A DNA stretch of 12,733 nucleotides, taken from UHGV virus genome UHGV-0125529, one strand, 5' to 3'. Below the pieces are notes generated by a model. That model searched no databases, was not told the origin of the DNA, and saw only the letters and a program-made list of their open reading frames with translations. The stretch is from a virus. The translations under genes and the position numbers were made by a program. This document shows positions 61 through 12,617 of this stretch, piece after piece (position 1 is the stretch's first letter; the number at the start of each line of letters is the position of its first letter).

Positions 61-86
61 CAAAAATAAAGGCCGATTATGCGGCC
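61..86 (-). terminator. Rho-independent terminator at the end of the leftward N operon gene
   Basis: Hairpin GGCCG(71-75)/CGGCC(82-86) with a 6-nt loop that contains the stop codon of CDS 77..700; on the minus strand it is followed by TTTATTTTTG (reverse complement of 61-70). Confidence 0.55.
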
Positions 87-700
87 TCGGAAGGAAGTCC
101 AATCATCTTATTCAAATCTTCTACCCGTAAAGCAGGAAGTGCTGCACTTGCTTTATCTGCTTCTTTTGGTAGCAACTCTTTGCTTTCAGGCCAAACTTCA
201 ATAAGTCGCTTAACTGTTGTGACTGAGTTCAAAGCAGCCCATACGTTTGATTCTATATCCTTTTTCCTGGCTTCAAGTTTTTGTTGCAATGCGCAGATTT
301 CATCAAACCTTTTTGTTATTTTGTGTTCTGCGTCAAACATGCATTTATCTTTGTCGGGGGTAGGGAGCAATATATCTTCACCGTTGCCGTCTTTTCCGTA
401 TGAATGCCAGCCAACCCTTCTTCCAGATACAGTCAGATAAATCGAACATGAACTGACATCGCATGAGTAAAATGAACATCCCAGCTTTTGAAGTTCCTCA
501 CTTGCAGCCATTAACTTTGATGCCAGCTGGTCCACTTCTTCGGTTTTCTTTTTCCCGCCAAACGCAATAACTCTGGCGTCAAGTGCAAGCTGGTTCTTTA
601 ACTTTGTTACTTCTTCAAGTTCAGTGAACACCCCGGACTTAATTAAAGCGTTACGAGCGATTTCCTCTTTCATTCTCGTAGTTAAGCGGATTGATGACAT
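77..700 (-). CDS. Hypothetical protein, 207 aa, first gene downstream of N in the leftward operon
   Basis: Long ORF; preferred start is the ATG at 700 (MSSIRLTTRMKEEIARN...) with RBS AGAGGA 6 nt upstream on the minus strand; the track ORF begins 20 codons earlier at an alternative start. No family recognised. Sits where lambda carries ral/sieB/kil-type early-left accessory genes. Confidence 0.6.
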   Translation of the reverse strand: MSSIRLTTRMKEEIARNALIKSGVFTELEEVTKLKNQLALDARVIAFGGKKKTEEVDQLASKLMAASEELQKLGCSFYSCDVSSCSIYLTVSGRRVGWHSYGKDGNGEDILLPTPDKDKCMFDAEHKITKRFDEICALQQKLEARKKDIESNVWAALNSVTTVKRLIEVWPESKELLPKEADKASAALPALRVEDLNKMIGLPSEAA

Positions 701-761
701 ATTAATTCCTCTCAAATAAGTGGTTTGCTGCCTAATTTCATTTTCTGGCGACCAACACAAG

Positions 762-1145
762 TCATCTTGCTGTCAGTTGTTTGGATTTACGGTAGCCTGC
801 AGCGTAAATGGCTACGTTTGGAAGACATACACCAGTTTCTGGTTGCTTATGTCCAAACTCATTCGCGTACACAATGGCCGCTCGCTCCAGATTGCGTCTG
901 TATTCTTTCTGTTGCCAGATCACGTCCTGTGCCATGAACTTAATTGGCTTAGCGTCTTCTATGCGCTCAGGCGTTTCGTGAGTACCTTTAGCCTGAATCT
1001 GCGCTCTGCTTAGAGTAGGGCGGTGTAATACTTCTGAACTTATTGCTTCTTCGCGGGCCAGCACGCCGTTAGCTAATGCCTTTGCCTTTAAACGCTCACG
1101 ACGACGAGAACGTGAATTGCCTTTGAACTGAGTTCTGCGTGTCAT
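762..1145 (-). CDS. N: Antitermination protein N (P22 gp24 / N-like)
   Basis: Preferred start ATG at 1145 with RBS GGAGG 6 nt upstream (track ORF extended to 1211). N-terminal arginine-rich motif GNSRSRRRERLKAKALA, and C-terminus ...LPNVAIYAAGYRKSKQLTAR closely resembling my recollection of the P22 N C-terminus (...LPGVALYAAGHRKSKQITAR). Leftward orientation and position relative to the repressor match lambdoid N. Confidence 0.8.
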   Translation of the reverse strand: MTRRTQFKGNSRSRRRERLKAKALANGVLAREEAISSEVLHRPTLSRAQIQAKGTHETPERIEDAKPIKFMAQDVIWQQKEYRRNLERAAIVYANEFGHKQPETGVCLPNVAIYAAGYRKSKQLTAR

Positions 1146-1274: not shown

Positions 1275-1289
1275 GCGCTTTGTCAGCGC
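1275..1289 (-). promoter_or_regulatory. nutL boxB RNA hairpin (P22 type)
   Basis: Minus-strand sequence GCGCTGACAAAGCGC (5-bp stem GCGCT/AGCGC, loop GACAA), about 130 nt upstream of the N start and downstream of the PL candidate; matches the P22-type boxB as I remember it. No convincing boxA found. Confidence 0.6.
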
Positions 1290-1570: not shown

Positions 1571-1599
1571 GCAAATAAAACCCGGCTCGGTGGCCGGGG
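1571..1599 (-). terminator. Rho-independent terminator ending the cI/ORF-1612..2637 transcript (tIMM-like)
   Basis: GC-rich hairpin CCCGGC(1581-1586)/GCCGGG(1593-1598) with a 6-nt loop; on the minus strand it is followed by TTTTATTTGC. Lies immediately downstream of the stop of CDS 1612..2637 and upstream of the PL candidate. Confidence 0.6.
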
Positions 1600-1611
1600 T
1601 TAGATTTTCTG

Positions 1612-2637
1612 TTACGGGCGAGTGATGGTTGATGCGTTTCCGTTTTCTATTACACCTGCTCGTATCGTGTAGCTTCCCAAGATTTTTACTGTCCTGTTTT
1701 CTTTCATTGCATCAAACAGTATGGCGATCTCGTCTTTATCATCTATGAACGACGTGTCCACCGAAACAGGGAAACTGTCTTCACTAGATGGTTCGCGGCA
1801 GCTTAGGGTTATCTTTTCCGCAGTACGCTTGATTCCATCAATGACTAATTCAAGGTTTCTTTCTTCTTTTTTTGCTTTTTCGATAGGGTTCTTGATTAGT
1901 TCGTGGATTTCTTTGTTAGACAGTTCAACTGTGCTTGCGCCTGATATGACAATTTTGTCAGCATCAGACGCGCCTTTTAATACCCCTGTATACGCTTTTG
2001 CAGTATGCTCTTGAATCCCTTCGGCGCGCTCTACTGCATCTATGCCCGCTTTAGCTCTAATCGCCTCAAGCATTCCGTCCCTTAATATCGTCATGCGCTC
2101 GTTTTCTGATTTAATCTTGGCTTCTTCGAGCTTTGTTTCTTCTTGCTTGACTTCTACTTCGGCTTTTTTCTCTAAGTATGATGTACCAACCCATGCACCG
2201 CCTATAACGGTGACAGCAAACAAGAAGCATAATGTTTTTTGGCTAGGACTCATACCGTGTGTTACCTTCTCAAAGGCTTTACCGAATGCTTCAAAAAGCT
2301 CTGTTAATGCAGCAAGTATATCAGTACAACCTTCATTAATGGTAAAGATGATCTCTGCTTCCTCTTTATCTTTACCAGTTAACCTTTGAAGGTTGTCAGT
2401 TTTATATTTTATTAGTGTGAAAACTTTATAAATTTCAGTCTGAAATTCGCATAAACCCTGAGCTAGAGGAGATGGAAGCGTTCCGTTGTAGCGAGAAGGA
2501 TCACCATAAATCTTAAAATTCACATTATTGAAGAGGTCTAACTTGATCCTGTCGATAGTGATCTCTTCGCCACCATCTAACCTTGCAAACAAAGATTCAA
2601 TGTCGTCCAGACTTGAAACATTAATAATATCTTTCAT
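1612..2637 (-). CDS. Uncharacterised single-pass membrane protein in the rexAB-equivalent locus (candidate lysogen-expressed exclusion/defence protein)
   Basis: 341-aa ORF with ATG at 2637 and RBS AAGGTG 5 nt upstream. One central hydrophobic segment (TLCFLFAVTVIGGAWVGTSYL, about aa 135-155) followed by a charged, probably coiled-coil stretch (EKKAEVEVKQEETKLEEAKIKSENER...). Visibly AT-rich relative to the flanking cI and N. Same strand as and directly downstream of cI, terminated before PL. No family recognised. Confidence 0.7.
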   Translation of the reverse strand: MKDIINVSSLDDIESLFARLDGGEEITIDRIKLDLFNNVNFKIYGDPSRYNGTLPSPLAQGLCEFQTEIYKVFTLIKYKTDNLQRLTGKDKEEAEIIFTINEGCTDILAALTELFEAFGKAFEKVTHGMSPSQKTLCFLFAVTVIGGAWVGTSYLEKKAEVEVKQEETKLEEAKIKSENERMTILRDGMLEAIRAKAGIDAVERAEGIQEHTAKAYTGVLKGASDADKIVISGASTVELSNKEIHELIKNPIEKAKKEERNLELVIDGIKRTAEKITLSCREPSSEDSFPVSVDTSFIDDKDEIAILFDAMKENRTVKILGSYTIRAGVIENGNASTITRP

Positions 2638-2717
2638 TACAACACCTTCGGCACAACCTTGCTAGTTAAATTAGTGATTATAAAAATTGGATACTTACCA
2701 GCTATGTGACGATGAAG

Positions 2718-3425
2718 TCACGAACTTTTCAGCCACTCCCTTGCCTCGATGTCATCCAGATGGCGAGATTGCTTCAGAATACCAGCCACATACTCCACCT
2801 TTGCTACTTGATGATAAGGCAACGTTATTGGCCTGTGGTCTTGGTTGATGCTTGTAAATTGGTATTCTCCATCTCTGTCATAGCCAAGAACCTTAATCAT
2901 GTTGTGTCCTTCAACGGTTCTGACAAACACCTCATCACCCGGGAATACTTTGGTGTTAGGCTCAATGAGTACATATTCTCCTGATTTTATTCTGGGCCAC
3001 ATGCTGTCTCCTTTCACACGAAGGCCAAAGGCATCTGGATCATCGCTATAAATTTTGAGCCACCCATCGCGCTCTTCGGTCATCTCGATGGCACCATCAA
3101 CACCAAGAATTGCCTCACCAACCACGCGCACTAACCCTTTTTTTAATTTGCCAACAAATGAAAGAGTATCTTCATCATTCGCTCCATTTAACGAAGTGCC
3201 GTGCTGAAGCCAAACAACATCAACGTTTAGAAATTTCGCAAGCGCATTCATTTTTTCCTGACGCGGTAAAGACTCAGCATTAAACCATTTGCTAACGCCT
3301 TTGGACGAAAGAGAAAGGGCACGGGCTATAGCCATTCCCCTACCATGTTCATCAAGACCAGCTTCTTTACAGGCTTGCGCTAGCCGCTGGGCGAATTCTT
3401 TGCGCACTTTTTCATTCTGAACCAT
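2718..3425 (-). CDS. cI: CI-like prophage repressor (N-terminal HTH, C-terminal S24/LexA-type peptidase domain)
   Basis: 235 aa; N-terminal HTH (GMAIARALSLSSKGVSKW); C-terminal VKGDSMWP motif typical of the S24 peptidase catalytic serine with a downstream lysine; divergent from the cro-like gene across a 78-bp operator region. Confidence 0.85.
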   Translation of the reverse strand: MVQNEKVRKEFAQRLAQACKEAGLDEHGRGMAIARALSLSSKGVSKWFNAESLPRQEKMNALAKFLNVDVVWLQHGTSLNGANDEDTLSFVGKLKKGLVRVVGEAILGVDGAIEMTEERDGWLKIYSDDPDAFGLRVKGDSMWPRIKSGEYVLIEPNTKVFPGDEVFVRTVEGHNMIKVLGYDRDGEYQFTSINQDHRPITLPYHQVAKVEYVAGILKQSRHLDDIEAREWLKSS

Positions 3426-3489
3426 GAGTACGATACTAAAGCACTTGCAAAAACTTTCAGTTCAATCATAATGCGTACTGAAAGTACGA
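3424..3489. promoter_or_regulatory. OR operator cluster: three palindromic sites about 24 bp apart
   Basis: Sites AGTACGATACT (3427-3437), AACTTTCAGTT (3451-3461) and the perfect 15-bp palindrome CGTACTGAAAGTACG (3474-3488); centres near 3432, 3456 and 3481. Located between the divergent cI and cro starts, the classic OR3-OR2-OR1 layout. Confidence 0.5.
3445..3472 (+). promoter_or_regulatory. Candidate PR promoter
   Basis: -35 TTGCAA (3445-3450), 16-bp spacer, -10 CATAAT (3467-3472); the predicted start site falls on the perfect palindrome at 3474-3488. Confidence 0.5.
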
Positions 3490-3503
3490 AAAAGGATATC
3501 CCT

Positions 3504-3731
3504 ATGCAAAATCTTGATGAGCCGATTAAAGGTGTCGGCATCCCTGAAGTTGCGAAGGCTTGTGGAGTTAGCGAAAGGGCTGTCTATAAGTGGCTCAAAA
3601 ACGGCTTCCTCCCTAAGACTGAGTTTTTTGGGAAAACGAAATACGCATCAAAAATCGAAGAGATTTCTGGTGGCAAATATCAAGCAAGCGAAATGCTTGA
3701 AATAAGCAAAAAGAACCTTCTGGCTGCATAA
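3504..3731 (+). CDS. cro: Cro-like HTH DNA-binding protein
   Basis: 75 aa from ATG 3504 (MQNLDEPIKG...), RBS AAAGGA 7 nt upstream; HTH segment IPEVAKACGVSERAVYKWLKNG. The in-frame ATG at 3471 lies inside the predicted PR -10 and is probably not used. Confidence 0.7.
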   Translation: MQNLDEPIKGVGIPEVAKACGVSERAVYKWLKNGFLPKTEFFGKTKYASKIEEISGGKYQASEMLEISKKNLLAA

Positions 3732-3869: not shown

Positions 3870-4166
3870 ATGACACAAACAAGTTACAGCAAACTATCCC
3901 AGCGCGACGTTGATCGCGCAGAAACGGATTTACTCATCAACCTGTCAACGCTTACCCAGCGCGGTCTGGCAAAGATGATTGGCTGTCATGAATCGAAGAT
4001 AAGCAGAACGGACTGGAGATTTATTGCTTCGGTCCTGTGTGCTTTCGGAATGGCATCAGACATCAGTCCGATTAGCAGGGCTTTTAAGTATGCGCTTGAT
4101 GGAATCACCAATAAAAAACGCCCGGCGGCAACCGAGCGTTCTGATCAAATACAAATGGAATTTTAA
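3870..4166 (+). CDS. cII: CII transcriptional activator
   Basis: 98 aa; C-terminus ...ITNKKRPAATERSDQIQMEF is almost identical to the lambda CII C-terminus as I remember it (...TNKKRPAATERSEQIQMEF); weak RBS, as in lambda cII. Confidence 0.85.
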   Translation: MTQTSYSKLSQRDVDRAETDLLINLSTLTQRGLAKMIGCHESKISRTDWRFIASVLCAFGMASDISPISRAFKYALDGITNKKRPAATERSDQIQMEF

Positions 4167-4188: not shown

Positions 4189-4332
4189 ATGCGAAAAACG
4201 CAGGAAAATAAACGCGTTAATCACCGAAAAGATGTGCTACGTGACCAGTTTTATCAGGGAGTTAATCCAGCAATAGCTGTGCCACTGAGAGAAATACTTA
4301 ACAGGTACAAAACTTCGGAGAAGTCAAAATGA
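4189..4332 (+). CDS. Small basic hypothetical protein (47 aa) translationally coupled to the initiator gene
   Basis: ATG at 4189 with RBS GAGG 7 nt upstream; its TGA stop overlaps the ATG of the next gene (ATGA at 4329-4332). Product MRKTQENKRVNHRKDVLRDQFYQGVNPAIAVPLREILNRYKTSEKSK. No homolog recognised. Confidence 0.4.
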   Translation: MRKTQENKRVNHRKDVLRDQFYQGVNPAIAVPLREILNRYKTSEKSK

Positions 4333-5126
4333 GCATGAATCTTATGGCTAAGGCCATGAATATAAAGGTTGGCAACCCACTGAGAAAACTGGTTCTGATT
4401 AAACTTGCCGATAACGCCAATGATAATGGCGAATGCTGGCCTTCATATCAACATGTCGCTGACCAGTGTGAGGTGAGCAGATCGACAGTAAAAAGTCACA
4501 TTAGGGCACTGGAAGAGATGGGTCTTTTGAAAAGGGAATGCAGAAGAAAAGGAGAGCTTAACCAGTCAAACGTTTTTTATCTGACGCTGGATAATGCACA
4601 ACAAATCCCACCAGAATCAGGTGGGGCAGGAGCTGCCCGGGGTGGGTCAGGAGCTGCCCGGGGTGGGGCAGGAGCTGCCCTAGGGGGTGGGGCAGGAGCT
4701 GCCCCCAGAACCTATCACTCTTTTGAACCAGTCAATGAACCTAAAAACATTATGTTCGAACATGTCCGAACGGAGTGGGAAAAAACTCCTGACCGTCACG
4801 AAGAAACCGACAAGGCATTCGAGGAAATATTCTGGTGTGCAGGCATGCGGAAAGCCGGGAAGAAAAACGCAGCTTCAGCATTCAGAACACAGTTCAGGGA
4901 ATGGCGTAAAACTACCAGGGGTACGGCAAGCGAGTTTGCCACGATGCTGGCAGAAGACATCGCATGCAGGAATGGTAAGCAGTTCGGATTCGACAGGTTG
5001 TTACCATCGAGCTACCTGAACGGTCAACGCTGGAACGACGAGAAGCCAGAAACTATTCAACCACAATCCAAACCATCATCCGCAATCACCGTATCGAAAA
5101 CTGGCTACGTGTTTTTCGACAGGTGA
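4329..5126 (+). CDS. Replication initiator, lambda O-like in organisation (iteron-containing)
   Basis: 265 aa, RBS GGAGAAG upstream; N-terminal winged-helix/HTH-like region (...YQHVADQCEVSRSTVKSHIRALEEMGLLKRE); the iteron array lies inside the coding region and encodes a Gly/Ala-rich linker, as ori-lambda does within O. Confidence 0.75.
   Translation: MSMNLMAKAMNIKVGNPLRKLVLIKLADNANDNGECWPSYQHVADQCEVSRSTVKSHIRALEEMGLLKRECRRKGELNQSNVFYLTLDNAQQIPPESGGAGAARGGSGAARGGAGAALGGGAGAAPRTYHSFEPVNEPKNIMFEHVRTEWEKTPDRHEETDKAFEEIFWCAGMRKAGKKNAASAFRTQFREWRKTTRGTASEFATMLAEDIACRNGKQFGFDRLLPSSYLNGQRWNDEKPETIQPQSKPSSAITVSKTGYVFFDR
4620..4704. repeat. Four direct iterons, each with an internal palindrome (candidate replication origin)
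   Basis: Units GGTGGGGCAGGAGCTGCCC at 4620-4638, 4641-4659 (one substitution, GGGTCAG), 4662-4680 and 4686-4704; period 21, 21 and 24 bp; each contains GGGCAG-GAG-CTGCCC; followed by a more AT-rich stretch. Confidence 0.8.
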
Positions 5127-7615: not shown

Positions 7616-8012
7616 ACTAAGAAGCCCCATCCATCAGCAGAACGCCATTCAAGCTATCCAGCAAATTCTTCCAGACCCAACCAAACCAATCGTAGTAACC
7701 ATTCAGGAACGCAACCGCAGCATTCGGCAAAATGCACGCCTTCACGCGATGCTATCTGAAATAAGTAAGAAGGCTACATATCATGGAAAAGCAAGAAATA
7801 TTGAGTTTTGGAAGGGGTTATTCGTTTCTGGTTGGCAGATTGCAACCAACCAGCACCCTGAGATTATATCAGGGTTAGAAGGTGAGCTAATAAACATCAG
7901 AGAGAGTACGGCGACTCTATCTGTAAAAAAAATATCCGAAATAATGGACTACATAGAAGCATATTGTGCCATGAACTCAATTAATCTTAGCGAATGGAGG
8001 AATTATGATTGA
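7596..8012 (+). CDS. ninB: NinB (Orf-family recombination protein)
   Basis: 138 aa from ATG 7596 (MRKLTFELRSPIHQQNAIQAIQQILPDPTKPIVVTIQERNRS...), closely matching my recollection of the lambda NinB N-terminus; the track ORF has a spurious N-terminal extension from 7515. Confidence 0.85.
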   Translation: MRKLTFELRSPIHQQNAIQAIQQILPDPTKPIVVTIQERNRSIRQNARLHAMLSEISKKATYHGKARNIEFWKGLFVSGWQIATNQHPEIISGLEGELINIRESTATLSVKKISEIMDYIEAYCAMNSINLSEWRNYD

Positions 8013-8607
8013 GGTTTGGGTAGATATCGAAGGAATTCCATTTTATCAGGTTAGCAATAAAGGAAATTTCAGGTCTATTACGAGGGAAATTACAGTAACA
8101 TCAACCAGACAGAGGCCATATAAGAAAATAATTAATGGCACTAGCGTAAAACCATTCAAGTGCAAGTCGACAGGATATCTTCAAATAAAGGTATACGGTA
8201 AGAAATACAGCACCCACAGGATAGTTGCGAAAGCATTCTGTACAGGGTTCTGTGATGGCTTGGTAGTTAATCACAAAAATGGGCAAAGAGATGACAATAG
8301 GGCTGAAAACCTTGAATGGGTATCACATTCTGAAAACTCAAAGCACGGATATAAACAAAATGGAAGAATACCTATATCGCTAGGTAAATTTAGTGGTGAT
8401 CATCCTGCCAGTAAAGCTGTTATTTCTACTGACATGAAAACTGGGGAGGAGGTTTATTATGAAGCAGCTATGGATGCTGTCAGAGAAGGATTTGATAGTT
8501 CGTCAATTAGTCGTTGCTGTAATGGCGAAAGCTCATATCACAAAGGAAGATTCTGGCGATTTGCAAATGAAACAATGAAAGCAAGATGGGGAGACAGGGC
8601 GGCATGA
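8005..8607 (+). CDS. HNH homing endonuclease (NUMOD4-like N-terminal motif, HNH core, C-terminal DNA-binding region)
   Basis: 200 aa; RBS GGAGG 4 nt before the ATG; N-terminal [20 protein letters not shown] (NUMOD4-like); HNH core HRIVAKAF...[25 protein letters not shown]; overlaps the ninB stop by 8 nt. Confidence 0.85.
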
Positions 8608-11360: not shown

Positions 11361-11879
11361 ATGGGCATAAGAGAACTAAACCTCACCAAAGAACAGCACG
11401 ATTGGCTGAATGGCTGGCTTGAACTGTGGGGCGCATGGGTTTATTCAGGTCGTCTGGAAAAGCGCATGAGCAGCGTAATAGCGAAGTTCATGGAGAGCGT
11501 AGAGCCGGGAAGAGTTATGACAAGACCAATGTGTAATGATGATGATGGAATGTTGATTTCTCAGGTCGTCGATTCCGTCATGTACATTGACAAGAAAGCC
11601 TTTGGCATCCTCCTCAGCTACTACGCTCATGGTTCATCTAAGAGAGCAATTGCATCCTACTATCACGCGACTGCAAAGCCACGCAAGATGTGTGGACGCG
11701 GTGGCGAGGGATGGAGAAAACCTTCACTGGCAACCTGTAGAAACGAAATTGACGATATCCTGAAAGCGTCATTATTTGTTTTGTACCAACCAATGCAAAA
11801 TGCTTTCAAAATGCGTAAACGTGTTGAGAAAGTTAAGCATGTTGCTGTTAAAAGCCTTGACATGCAATTAGCCATTTAG
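11361..11879 (+). CDS. Q: Late-gene antiterminator Q (phage 82 / QuuD-like family)
   Basis: 172 aa, RBS GGGAGAAG; motifs WGAW near the N-terminus and RPMCNDDDGMLISQVVD resemble the Q family found in phage 82 and E. coli QuuD; sits after ninG and before a strong promoter, as Q does in lambdoid phages. Confidence 0.8.
   Translation: MGIRELNLTKEQHDWLNGWLELWGAWVYSGRLEKRMSSVIAKFMESVEPGRVMTRPMCNDDDGMLISQVVDSVMYIDKKAFGILLSYYAHGSSKRAIASYYHATAKPRKMCGRGGEGWRKPSLATCRNEIDDILKASLFVLYQPMQNAFKMRKRVEKVKHVAVKSLDMQLAI
11847..11876 (+). promoter_or_regulatory. Candidate late promoter PR' (Q-utilisation region)
   Basis: Perfect -35 TTGACA (11847-11852), 18-bp spacer, -10 CATAAT (11871-11876), overlapping the 3' end of Q. 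Confidence 0.5.
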
Positions 11880-12053: not shown

Positions 12054-12185
12054 GTATCTGCGCCACGCCCGGCGCATATCAACCACAGAGCCTTTCGGGG
12101 GTGAGCTTACGGAGTGGTCAGTGTGACTTTCTCTGTGGGCAGATCGCTCCCGGGCGTTGGCTCACCCACCCAAAGGAACGTCACG

Positions 12186-12617
12186 ATGTTTGGTATTTTT
12201 GGTAAAAAAGCCCGCCGAGCGGCAGTGGAAATTAAAAAGTTTGAGAAACGTGATCTGGCACAGGCGGTTATTAATGCTGCCTATCTGGTGGCCTATGCAG
12301 ATGGTGAATGTGAGGCTTCAGAGAAAGCGAAGATCGAGCAGGTCTTGCGTAACCAGCCTGCGTTGTCCGCGTTTACGTCAGAAATTAATGCGATTAGCGC
12401 AACCATTATCGGTCAGCTGGATACGAACTTTAAAATTGGTCGTCGAGCGGCGTTACGTGAGATCGAGGATGTGAAACACGATACGCGTGAAGCGGAAGAC
12501 GTGCTGGATGTGGCGGTGGCCATTGCCGAAGCAGACGGCGAAATAGAGCCGGAAGAGCGCAAGGTGCTGGAAGAGATTGCCGGTGTCCTGGGCCTTCGTC
12601 TGGAGAATCATCTGTGA
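12186..12617 (+). CDS. TerB-like (tellurite-resistance TerB family) domain protein
   Basis: 143 aa from ATG 12186 (RBS AAGGAA 8 nt upstream; track lists a GTG start at 12114). Two acidic repeats of the TerB type (LVAYADGECEASEKAKIEQ and AIAEADGEIEPEERKVLEEI). GC-richer than the phage genes upstream. Confidence 0.65.
   Translation: MFGIFGKKARRAAVEIKKFEKRDLAQAVINAAYLVAYADGECEASEKAKIEQVLRNQPALSAFTSEINAISATIIGQLDTNFKIGRRAALREIEDVKHDTREAEDVLDVAVAIAEADGEIEPEERKVLEEIAGVLGLRLENHL

Follow-up and report, generated by a model that had tools for sequence, protein, structure and literature searches.

In silico analysis of a 12,733-nucleotide stretch of the virus genome UHGV-0125529 (here called the window) revealed the early region of a lambdoid prophage, with cro and cII diverging on the plus strand from a cI-type repressor gene. 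Directly behind cI, and on the same strand, lies an open reading frame (ORF) for a protein of 341 amino acids, which an original prediction made from the letters alone had singled out as the best candidate in the window for an uncharacterised anti-phage system. The ORF is separated from cI by 80 bp and has, as predicted, a ribosome-binding site (RBS) of its own, AAGGTG, located 5 nt 5' of the ATG. The proposed order cI - ORF - terminator - PL - nutL - N was borne out by Pfam matches, a promoter scan and shuffling tests of boxB. It places the ORF on the cI strand between cI and the terminator that precedes PL, which is the predicted rexAB position. In phage mEp332, whose cI is 97% identical to lambda cI, a 42%-identical homologue replaces rexAB and lies exactly where lambda has rexA-rexB. 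The features of the locus and of the encoded protein are listed in Table 1.

Table 1. Features of the repressor-proximal region of the window and parts of the 341-residue protein, in window coordinates
Feature	Position	Strand	Evidence or remark
ORF, 341 aa, ATG start	1612..2637	-	ORF list; phrog_6191 member
Exchangeable cargo cassette: 57-nt leader, ORF and 13-nt tail	1599..2694	-	blastn junctions
Leader travelling with the cargo; RBS AAGGTG, -10-like TATAAT (2677-2682)	2638..2694	-	Sequence
Intrinsic terminator, tIMM equivalent, ends the cI-cargo unit	1573..1598 (hairpin 1598-1581)	-	Sequence, fold energy
cI-type repressor, HTH_3 and Peptidase_S24	2718..3425	-	Pfam PF00717 E 4.4e-16, PF01381 E 1.2e-5
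N-terminal alpha/beta domain, residues 1-128	2254..2637	-	AF2; best-conserved part in the family
Single hydrophobic helix TLCFLFAVTVIGGAWVGTSYL, presumed membrane anchor, residues 131-155	2173..2247	-	Kyte-Doolittle
Highly charged helical region, residues 156-225; hairpin 169-196 and 199-222	1963..2172	-	AF2
Beta-rich C-terminal domain ending in a predicted OB-fold, residues 226-341	1615..1962	-	Predicted structure
PL-like sigma-70 promoter TTGATA-17-CATTAT	1387-1359	-	Promoter scan
nutL boxB hairpin GCGCTGACAAAGCGC	1275-1289	-	1 match; 0/200 shuffles gave any
Antiterminator N	762..1145 (or ..1211)	-	Pfam N_peptide E 2.4e-15; PhiR12_1 N annotation maps here
Nmad5 gene, directly 3' of N in the PL operon	77-760	-	E 1.5e-68
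cro	3471..3731	+	
cII	3870..4166	+	

The window was compared by blastn with five E. coli prophages that have the same cI and cro and carry other cargo; four of the five are annotated with identical cI (WP_000250473.1) and cro (WP_001180318.1). The repressor gene of WP_000250473.1 is 708 bp long, the same length as cI of the window, and the DNA surrounding it is ~98% identical in many E. coli prophages. Backbone identity of 97 to 99% stopped at position 1598, where the terminator hairpin ends (in two loci at 1586 or 1581), and picked up again at 2695/2696, position 2695 being 23 nt past the cI stop codon. Since backbone homology breaks at 1598 and resumes at 2695, the segment 1599-2694 represents the cargo cassette.

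The original prediction had described this locus as one where lambdoid prophages keep exclusion and abortive-infection genes, and had suggested a comparison of related prophages for variability. Both points were substantiated: the same junctions enclose many different cargos, and several of these in same-cI prophages are defence genes or candidates. With the same cI, E. coli 2013C-4538 carries a BstA homologue, and BstA in the same slot of CP027582 matched the PADLOC model PDLC02356 with an E value of 4e-106. Shiga toxin (Stx) 2a phages have DUF3024/PDC-S43 (E 7e-42) together with a NYN nuclease (locus L005, 1709-3055), and O157:H7 Xuzhou21, again with cI WP_000250473.1, has DUF3024, a 153-amino-acid protein and a serine/threonine kinase (locus L064, 1448-3525). 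Further contents were two different pairs of ~120 and 40 amino acids with unknown function, one decayed remnant, and a divergent member of the same family as the ORF product (E 1.6e-81 against the family profile), which shows 25% identity over the first two-thirds and a C-terminal domain that BLASTP could not align. The interval between cI and N has been described as a mosaic hotspot whose occupants share the highly transcribed repressor promoter (PMC8585504).

Closer examination of the cassette borders supports separate acquisition of the gene, for which the junctions are the real evidence. The prediction had relied on AT-richness. The ORF is indeed moderately AT-richer (40.5% GC) than cI (45.6%), N (49.1%) and the window as a whole (45.7%), but Nmad5 (41.7%) and cro (42.1%) are similar, and values as low as 33-38% occur only in the 5' third of the ORF, so that composition is a weak sign. 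The terminator begins 13 nt past the ORF stop codon and consists of CCCGGC, a 6-nt loop, GCCGGG and then TTTTATTT. It had been called strong; it is a canonical hairpin with a T-run, but not an exceptional one, since its fold energy of -12.5 kcal/mol corresponds to a z score of only -1.5. The hairpin is common to prophages with BstA or other cargo and forms the left homology breakpoint, and a near-identical one (CCCGGCC-ACCG-xGCCGGG plus T-run) follows the gene in loci L015-L023, L008 and L045, where the downstream sequence is different. The terminator may act as a recombination joint for cassette exchange.

Upstream of the gene, no terminator was found in the interval between cI and the ORF, and the cI promoter (PRM) is the presumed source of cargo-gene transcription. 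A private promoter within the leader had been considered possible. A TATAAT hexamer is present at 2682-2677 on the minus strand, but there is no usable -35 element, the promoter scan did not call it, and the same position reads TTTAAT or TTCAAT in 90%-identical alleles; a promoter of this kind is not supported. The leader itself is kept together with the gene behind different cI genes.

The cargo is a one-gene unit. In eight of nine related loci, a GC hairpin with a T-run follows 10-25 nt past the stop codon (the ninth locus ends at the stop), and no conserved partner gene was found downstream in the nine. A translationally coupled small downstream partner was also considered and dismissed, as the candidate ORFs cross the terminator and are mutually unrelated, i.e., spurious. 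Within the gene, divergence is mosaic: compared to a 90%-identical allele (L017), dS (synonymous divergence) reached 1.9 in the C-terminal domain against ~0.3 over the two-thirds before it, whereas compared to Yersinia and Serratia alleles (L009/L012), dN (nonsynonymous divergence) was 0.12 in the C-terminal and 0.27-0.29 in the N-terminal part. This pattern suggests domain swapping or recombination at the level of domains.

Against alleles with unsaturated dS, dN/dS was 0.04-0.09 in every part of the protein; the ORF is a real gene under strong purifying selection. Full-length homologues with 45-100% identity showed no frameshift, which speaks against the earlier concern that two unrelated genes might have been joined, and homologues of the same length in this identity range were found in Escherichia, Citrobacter, Cronobacter, Dickeya, Pantoea, Yersinia, Serratia, Klebsiella and Salmonella. 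Phages PhiR12_1 to _5 encode an identical protein, and more distant phage relatives are mEp332 (42%), Pasteurella phage Pmp14 (33%) and phi458 (25% identity). An exhaustive profile search yielded 734 clusters (50% identity) with E <= 1e-3, of which 283 remained when the cut-off was E <= 1e-10; one cluster comes from a Desulfobulbaceae metagenome-assembled genome (MAG). Among the 150 clusters listed, most comprise 300-380 amino acids, and the rest include short fragments. The gene is rare in E. coli, since a full-length version was present in only ~4 of 5,426 complete genomes. A truncated 245-amino-acid version (H55/P0039) occurs in E. coli STEC1585 and 53 contigs, with 96% identity over 56% of the protein.

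The search with hidden Markov models (HMMs) that had been proposed as a check placed the protein in no named family of Pfam, NCBIfam or PADLOC. In Pfam, searches with the whole protein, with each half and with 66 homologues produced no match above the level of shared composition, and no NCBIfam model matched. In PADLOC-DB 2.0.0, the ORF product was unmatched at E <= 0.1, and five homologues (L054, mEp332, phi458, Pmp14 and the Desulfobulbaceae MAG) had no match either. The HMM of PHROG 6191, in the category 'unknown function', matched residues 5-340 with an E value of 1.3e-98. A literature search that did not extend to the E. coli prophage defence survey of Brenes & Laub 2025 found no paper describing the family. 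Swappable exclusion cargo behind a prophage repressor is known, whereas the protein family and its architecture are undescribed in the libraries and papers searched.

Furthermore, we analyzed the surroundings of family members in other genomes. An S24/HTH repressor gene lies directly upstream on the same strand in 22 of the 23 loci with a readable upstream gene. Gaps, where measured, were ~24-220 bp, usually 24-130, with one 4-nt overlap. Since most of these repressors are just 16-30% identical to cI of the window, many immunity types are represented. Distant members P0065 and P0112 show the repressor-adjacent arrangement too, and in the Desulfobulbaceae MAG a CI-type repressor precedes the homologue at the end of a Mu-like prophage. 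The surroundings of two other distant members are Arc/antirepressor islands within structural genes, resembling the mnt-arc-ant and sieA region of P22. In Yersinia ruckeri, the gene is found next to an invertase, at the border of a prophage whose baseplate and tail-fibre genes are of the Mu type.

Several of these members have defence genes or candidates as neighbours. In Yersinia ruckeri (L009, 4596-4937), DUF3024/PDC-S43 lies directly upstream. In Pasteurella phage Pmp14 (L003, 2638-5002), the family member comes after an HTH gene and the reverse transcriptase gene of a type VI retron (RT_VI, E 2e-88), in the same orientation and across a gap of 84 nt; this adjacency may reflect a functional link or simply the clustering of defence genes. 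The next gene in locus L048 is PDC-S31, and a type I restriction subunit lies nearby in L059.

The structure of the protein was predicted using AlphaFold2 (AF2). With 23 aligned sequences, the mean predicted local distance difference test (pLDDT) was 78, and with 66 diverse sequences it was 90.4 at a predicted template modelling score (pTM) of 0.82; the secondary structure was the same in both cases. In the wide alignment, mean pairwise identity amounts to 27% in the N-terminal domain versus 15-19% in the C-terminal parts. The polar residues K42, Q66, E68, D81, N82 and D90 do not vary among close subfamily members, and the N-terminal domain had no sequence match in Pfam or the PDB. The single central transmembrane-type helix of the original prediction was recovered as the only hydrophobic segment of the protein (residues 135-155, Kyte-Doolittle 1.65 over 19 residues), membrane spanning itself being predicted. 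All 66 homologues have one such stretch at residues ~115-160, with Kyte-Doolittle values up to 3.1 and little sequence conservation, and for these reasons a membrane anchor is favored over a buried helix of a soluble protein.

The coiled-coil-like segment that had been described behind this helix was likewise found as a highly charged region modelled as helical by AF2 (residues 156-225), with a weak DivIC/FtsB-like composition match (E 0.05). The C-terminal domain had been called unrecognised, which needs correction, as it is predicted to end in an OB (oligonucleotide/oligosaccharide-binding) fold, a five-stranded barrel with strands and helix in the expected order (b1 256-271, b2 275-281, b3 288-294, helix 301-312, b4 316-326, b5 329-339). 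Foldseek gave only weak OB matches in the PDB, and full-length matches in BFVD were solely to uncharacterised phage proteins. PDB profile searches returned only weak matches (E >= 0.005) to the anchor or linker segments of MotB, PBP5 and Tom20. The soluble parts on either side of the helix are both acidic (mean net charge about -6 each in the 66 members); for the last 90 residues the mean is -2.9 (range -11 to +6), which does not suit a basic DNA-binding face. Cysteine is absent from the C-terminal part of 45 of the 66 members, and an odd cysteine count is frequent in the N-terminal part. We favor a topology with the N terminus in the cytoplasm and the C terminus in the periplasm (N-in/C-out), since the N-terminal domain of 130 residues is charged and has no signal peptide; the charges flanking the helix agree weakly with this orientation. 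Mean-field direct coupling analysis for contacts between the N- and C-terminal parts (169 non-redundant sequences) was dominated by gap-column artefacts.

The encoded protein resembles several known systems in position or layout. Like lambda RexAB, it is encoded between cI and the terminator preceding PL in the same orientation, is presumably co-transcribed with the repressor and has a predicted membrane element. In contrast, it is encoded by one gene and has one hydrophobic helix, while RexAB combines the sensor RexA with the multi-pass channel RexB. The profile of 66 sequences reached hhalign probabilities of only 0.8% for RexA and 0.2% for RexB; judged by sequence, the family protein takes the place of RexAB and is not a member of it. 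With BstA of prophage BTP1 (Owen et al. 2021, PMC8585504), it shares the arrangement of a single-gene cargo directly after the repressor with its own terminator. The BstA model PDLC02356 was matched neither by the ORF product nor by the five homologues searched in PADLOC, and the family protein differs in its predicted membrane anchor and OB-fold, while BstA is reported to work at phage DNA replication sites (PMC8585504).

The cargo of DUF3024 and Stk in 933W/Sp5-type Stx prophages occupies the same slot behind WP_000250473.1; it comprises several genes with a recognisable kinase and is unrelated in sequence. Stk reportedly excludes HK97. P22 SieA, HK97 gp15 and TP-J34 Ltp are prophage-expressed envelope proteins without an enzymatic domain, as is predicted for the family protein, but the latter is about twice the size of SieA-type proteins, has a large conserved N-terminal domain and showed no homology to SieA (hhalign probability 0.1%). 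By functional analogy, it would also resemble SNIPE, a membrane-bound nuclease with DUF4041 and GIY-YIG domains that cuts phage DNA during injection (PMC13190303), in that a single-pass anchor would keep a binding module at the site of phage genome entry, the inner membrane. The helix of SNIPE is near the N terminus, however, and neither a nuclease nor DUF4041 was detectable in the family protein.

Position, repressor linkage, the alternative occupants of the slot and the neighbouring genes together make an anti-phage role likely, and by association the gene is a candidate for this function. It probably constitutes a one-gene accessory cassette in the repressor-proximal slot that is expressed in the lysogen, by transcripts that start at the cI promoter, continue through the gene and stop at the tIMM-like terminator, and that protects the lysogen against other phages. 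For the mechanism, we tentatively suggest Rex-type exclusion by a single chain, which is possible and remains open to doubt. The protein would be anchored in the inner membrane by its single hydrophobic helix, one soluble domain would recognise an infection signal, and the response would be abortive infection at the membrane level. For instance, the helix might oligomerise via its small-residue GG..G face, so that the membrane potential collapses, or the response might come from some activity of the conserved N-terminal domain. Alleles differ from one another most strongly in the C-terminal module of helical hairpin and OB-fold. A Rex-like device was chosen because the systems that fill the slot in lambda and its relatives, RexAB, BstA and Stk, act by abortive infection and do not block entry, because the most conserved part is the probably cytoplasmic domain, which a pure entry blocker would not need, and because one architecture spans very different hosts. 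As an account of both role and mechanism, this is the best explanation we can give, held with not quite even confidence.

Several observations weigh against this account. Every functional step in it is drawn from association or analogy. The family is missing from PADLOC 2.0, a library that includes candidates predicted from defence islands, and no enzymatic or pore-forming domain was recognised with Pfam in the whole protein, its halves or the 66 homologues. A single helix would have to oligomerise to conduct ions. Since both soluble domains are acidic, the OB-fold is disfavored as a generic nucleic-acid sensor, and dN/dS shows no signature of an arms race within alleles. The charges flanking the helix discriminate topology poorly. 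Furthermore, the pTM of 0.82 implies that AF2 is confident of how the N- and C-terminal halves are positioned against one another. Domains separated by a membrane would not be expected to give such a value, which makes the topology, and even true spanning, uncertain; in the model, the soluble halves would be confidently packed or rigidly linked, which is hard to fit to a simple bitopic arrangement.

The main rival is superinfection exclusion at the entry step, in which an N-in/C-out bitopic inner-membrane protein would use its acidic periplasmic hairpin/OB part to bind tape-measure or ejection proteins of an incoming phage or an inner-membrane entry factor and block genome translocation, the cell surviving. 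Known Sie proteins (SieA, HK97 gp15, Ltp and Imm, for example) are small envelope proteins expressed from prophages, and the anchor kept in all 66 members, the acidic and mostly cysteine-free C-terminal part as a periplasmic binding domain, and an N-terminal domain whose missing signal peptide and often odd cysteine number fit the cytoplasm would all suit this explanation, as would the failure to find an enzymatic domain and the two distant members in Arc/antirepressor islands, where P22 keeps sieA. On the other hand, the best-conserved part is the presumably cytoplasmic N-terminal domain of 130 residues, superfluous for a pure blocker, and a range from Enterobacterales to Desulfobulbaceae with one architecture sits badly with a specific phage or host target. 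Together with the abortive character of RexAB, BstA and Stk, the lack of homology to SieA noted above and a pTM suggesting that the two domains may touch, this leaves entry exclusion somewhat unlikely. A bolder alternative would make the family a new class of one-polypeptide outside-in immune receptors: the variable periplasmic hairpin/OB module would detect incoming tail-tip or ejection proteins during envelope penetration and signal via the helix to a cytoplasmic N-terminal effector, in a device carried beside lysogeny repressors by lambdoid, Mu-like and P22 immI-like phages. We regard this as a long shot.

Linkage to repressors as unrelated as the S24, Mu-type CI and Arc types could equally mean a role in lysogeny itself, such as modulation of the switch or of induction, tolerance of envelope stress, or lysogenic conversion. 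Purifying selection without diversification and the lack of a match to any known defence model agree with such a non-defence function, and RexA/RexB offer a precedent, a second role in the lysogenic-to-lytic transition having been published for them (Thomason 2021, cited in PMC12315714). Conversely, the alternatives in the slot and the neighbours are defence genes or candidates, and prophages with identical cI and cro that lack the gene carry unrelated cargo, so that it is dispensable for the switch and behaves as swappable cargo; we consider a non-defence function unlikely. The GenBank records of PhiR12 and mEp332 (PV340541, PV340549-PV340554) name the product 'T2SS GspM containing protein', which would make it an assembly protein of a type II secretion system (T2SS). 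The layout of a bitopic helix with a coiled-coil-like segment is superficially like GspM, PilO or FtsB, in line with the weak DivIC match, yet the Pfam family T2SSM (PF04612) was unmatched at E <= 10 by the whole protein or its halves and by all 66 family members, the context is a prophage immunity region instead of a secretion operon, and a domain of 130 residues precedes the helix, where GspM has a short cytoplasmic N terminus. With no T2SSM match at any threshold and a conflicting predicted OB-fold, identity with GspM was rejected as extremely improbable, and the label looks like an over-interpreted weak match.

The slot behind the repressor has already given RexAB, BstA and Stk, and the ORF, whose product belongs to a large family without a name, is placed there just as well. 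If it encodes a defence protein, this would be a new architecture, in which a membrane anchor is combined with an OB-fold and no enzyme is recognisable, and a simple model, in a single chain, of the way exclusion at the membrane is triggered; to our knowledge, the nature of the Rex trigger is still an open question after 60 years. Such a role is directly testable, as the identical protein is present in the cultivable K-12 phages PhiR12_1 to _5 and the homologue with 42% identity in mEp332. In addition, natural 'isogenic' prophages exist that have BstA, Stk or a divergent allele in the slot.

Three other genes of the window are worth mentioning. A protein with a TerB domain (PF05099, E 1e-15) is encoded at 12114-12617 on the plus strand, ~230 bp past the Q gene (11361-11879). 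This position matches the late-promoter-proximal site at which Stx phages carry toxin genes and other cargo. In the nin region, an HNH/NUMOD4 homing endonuclease gene (8005-8607, plus strand) overlaps the end of ninB by 8 nt and was identified by PADLOC (HEase, E 2e-26) and by the Pfam families HNH_3 and NUMOD4. Finally, an HTH_36 replication-initiator-like protein (4329-5126, plus strand) contains the Gly/Ala-rich repeat GGAGAARGGSGAARGGAGAALGGGAGAA at residues ~97-125, where the local GC content is ~53%.

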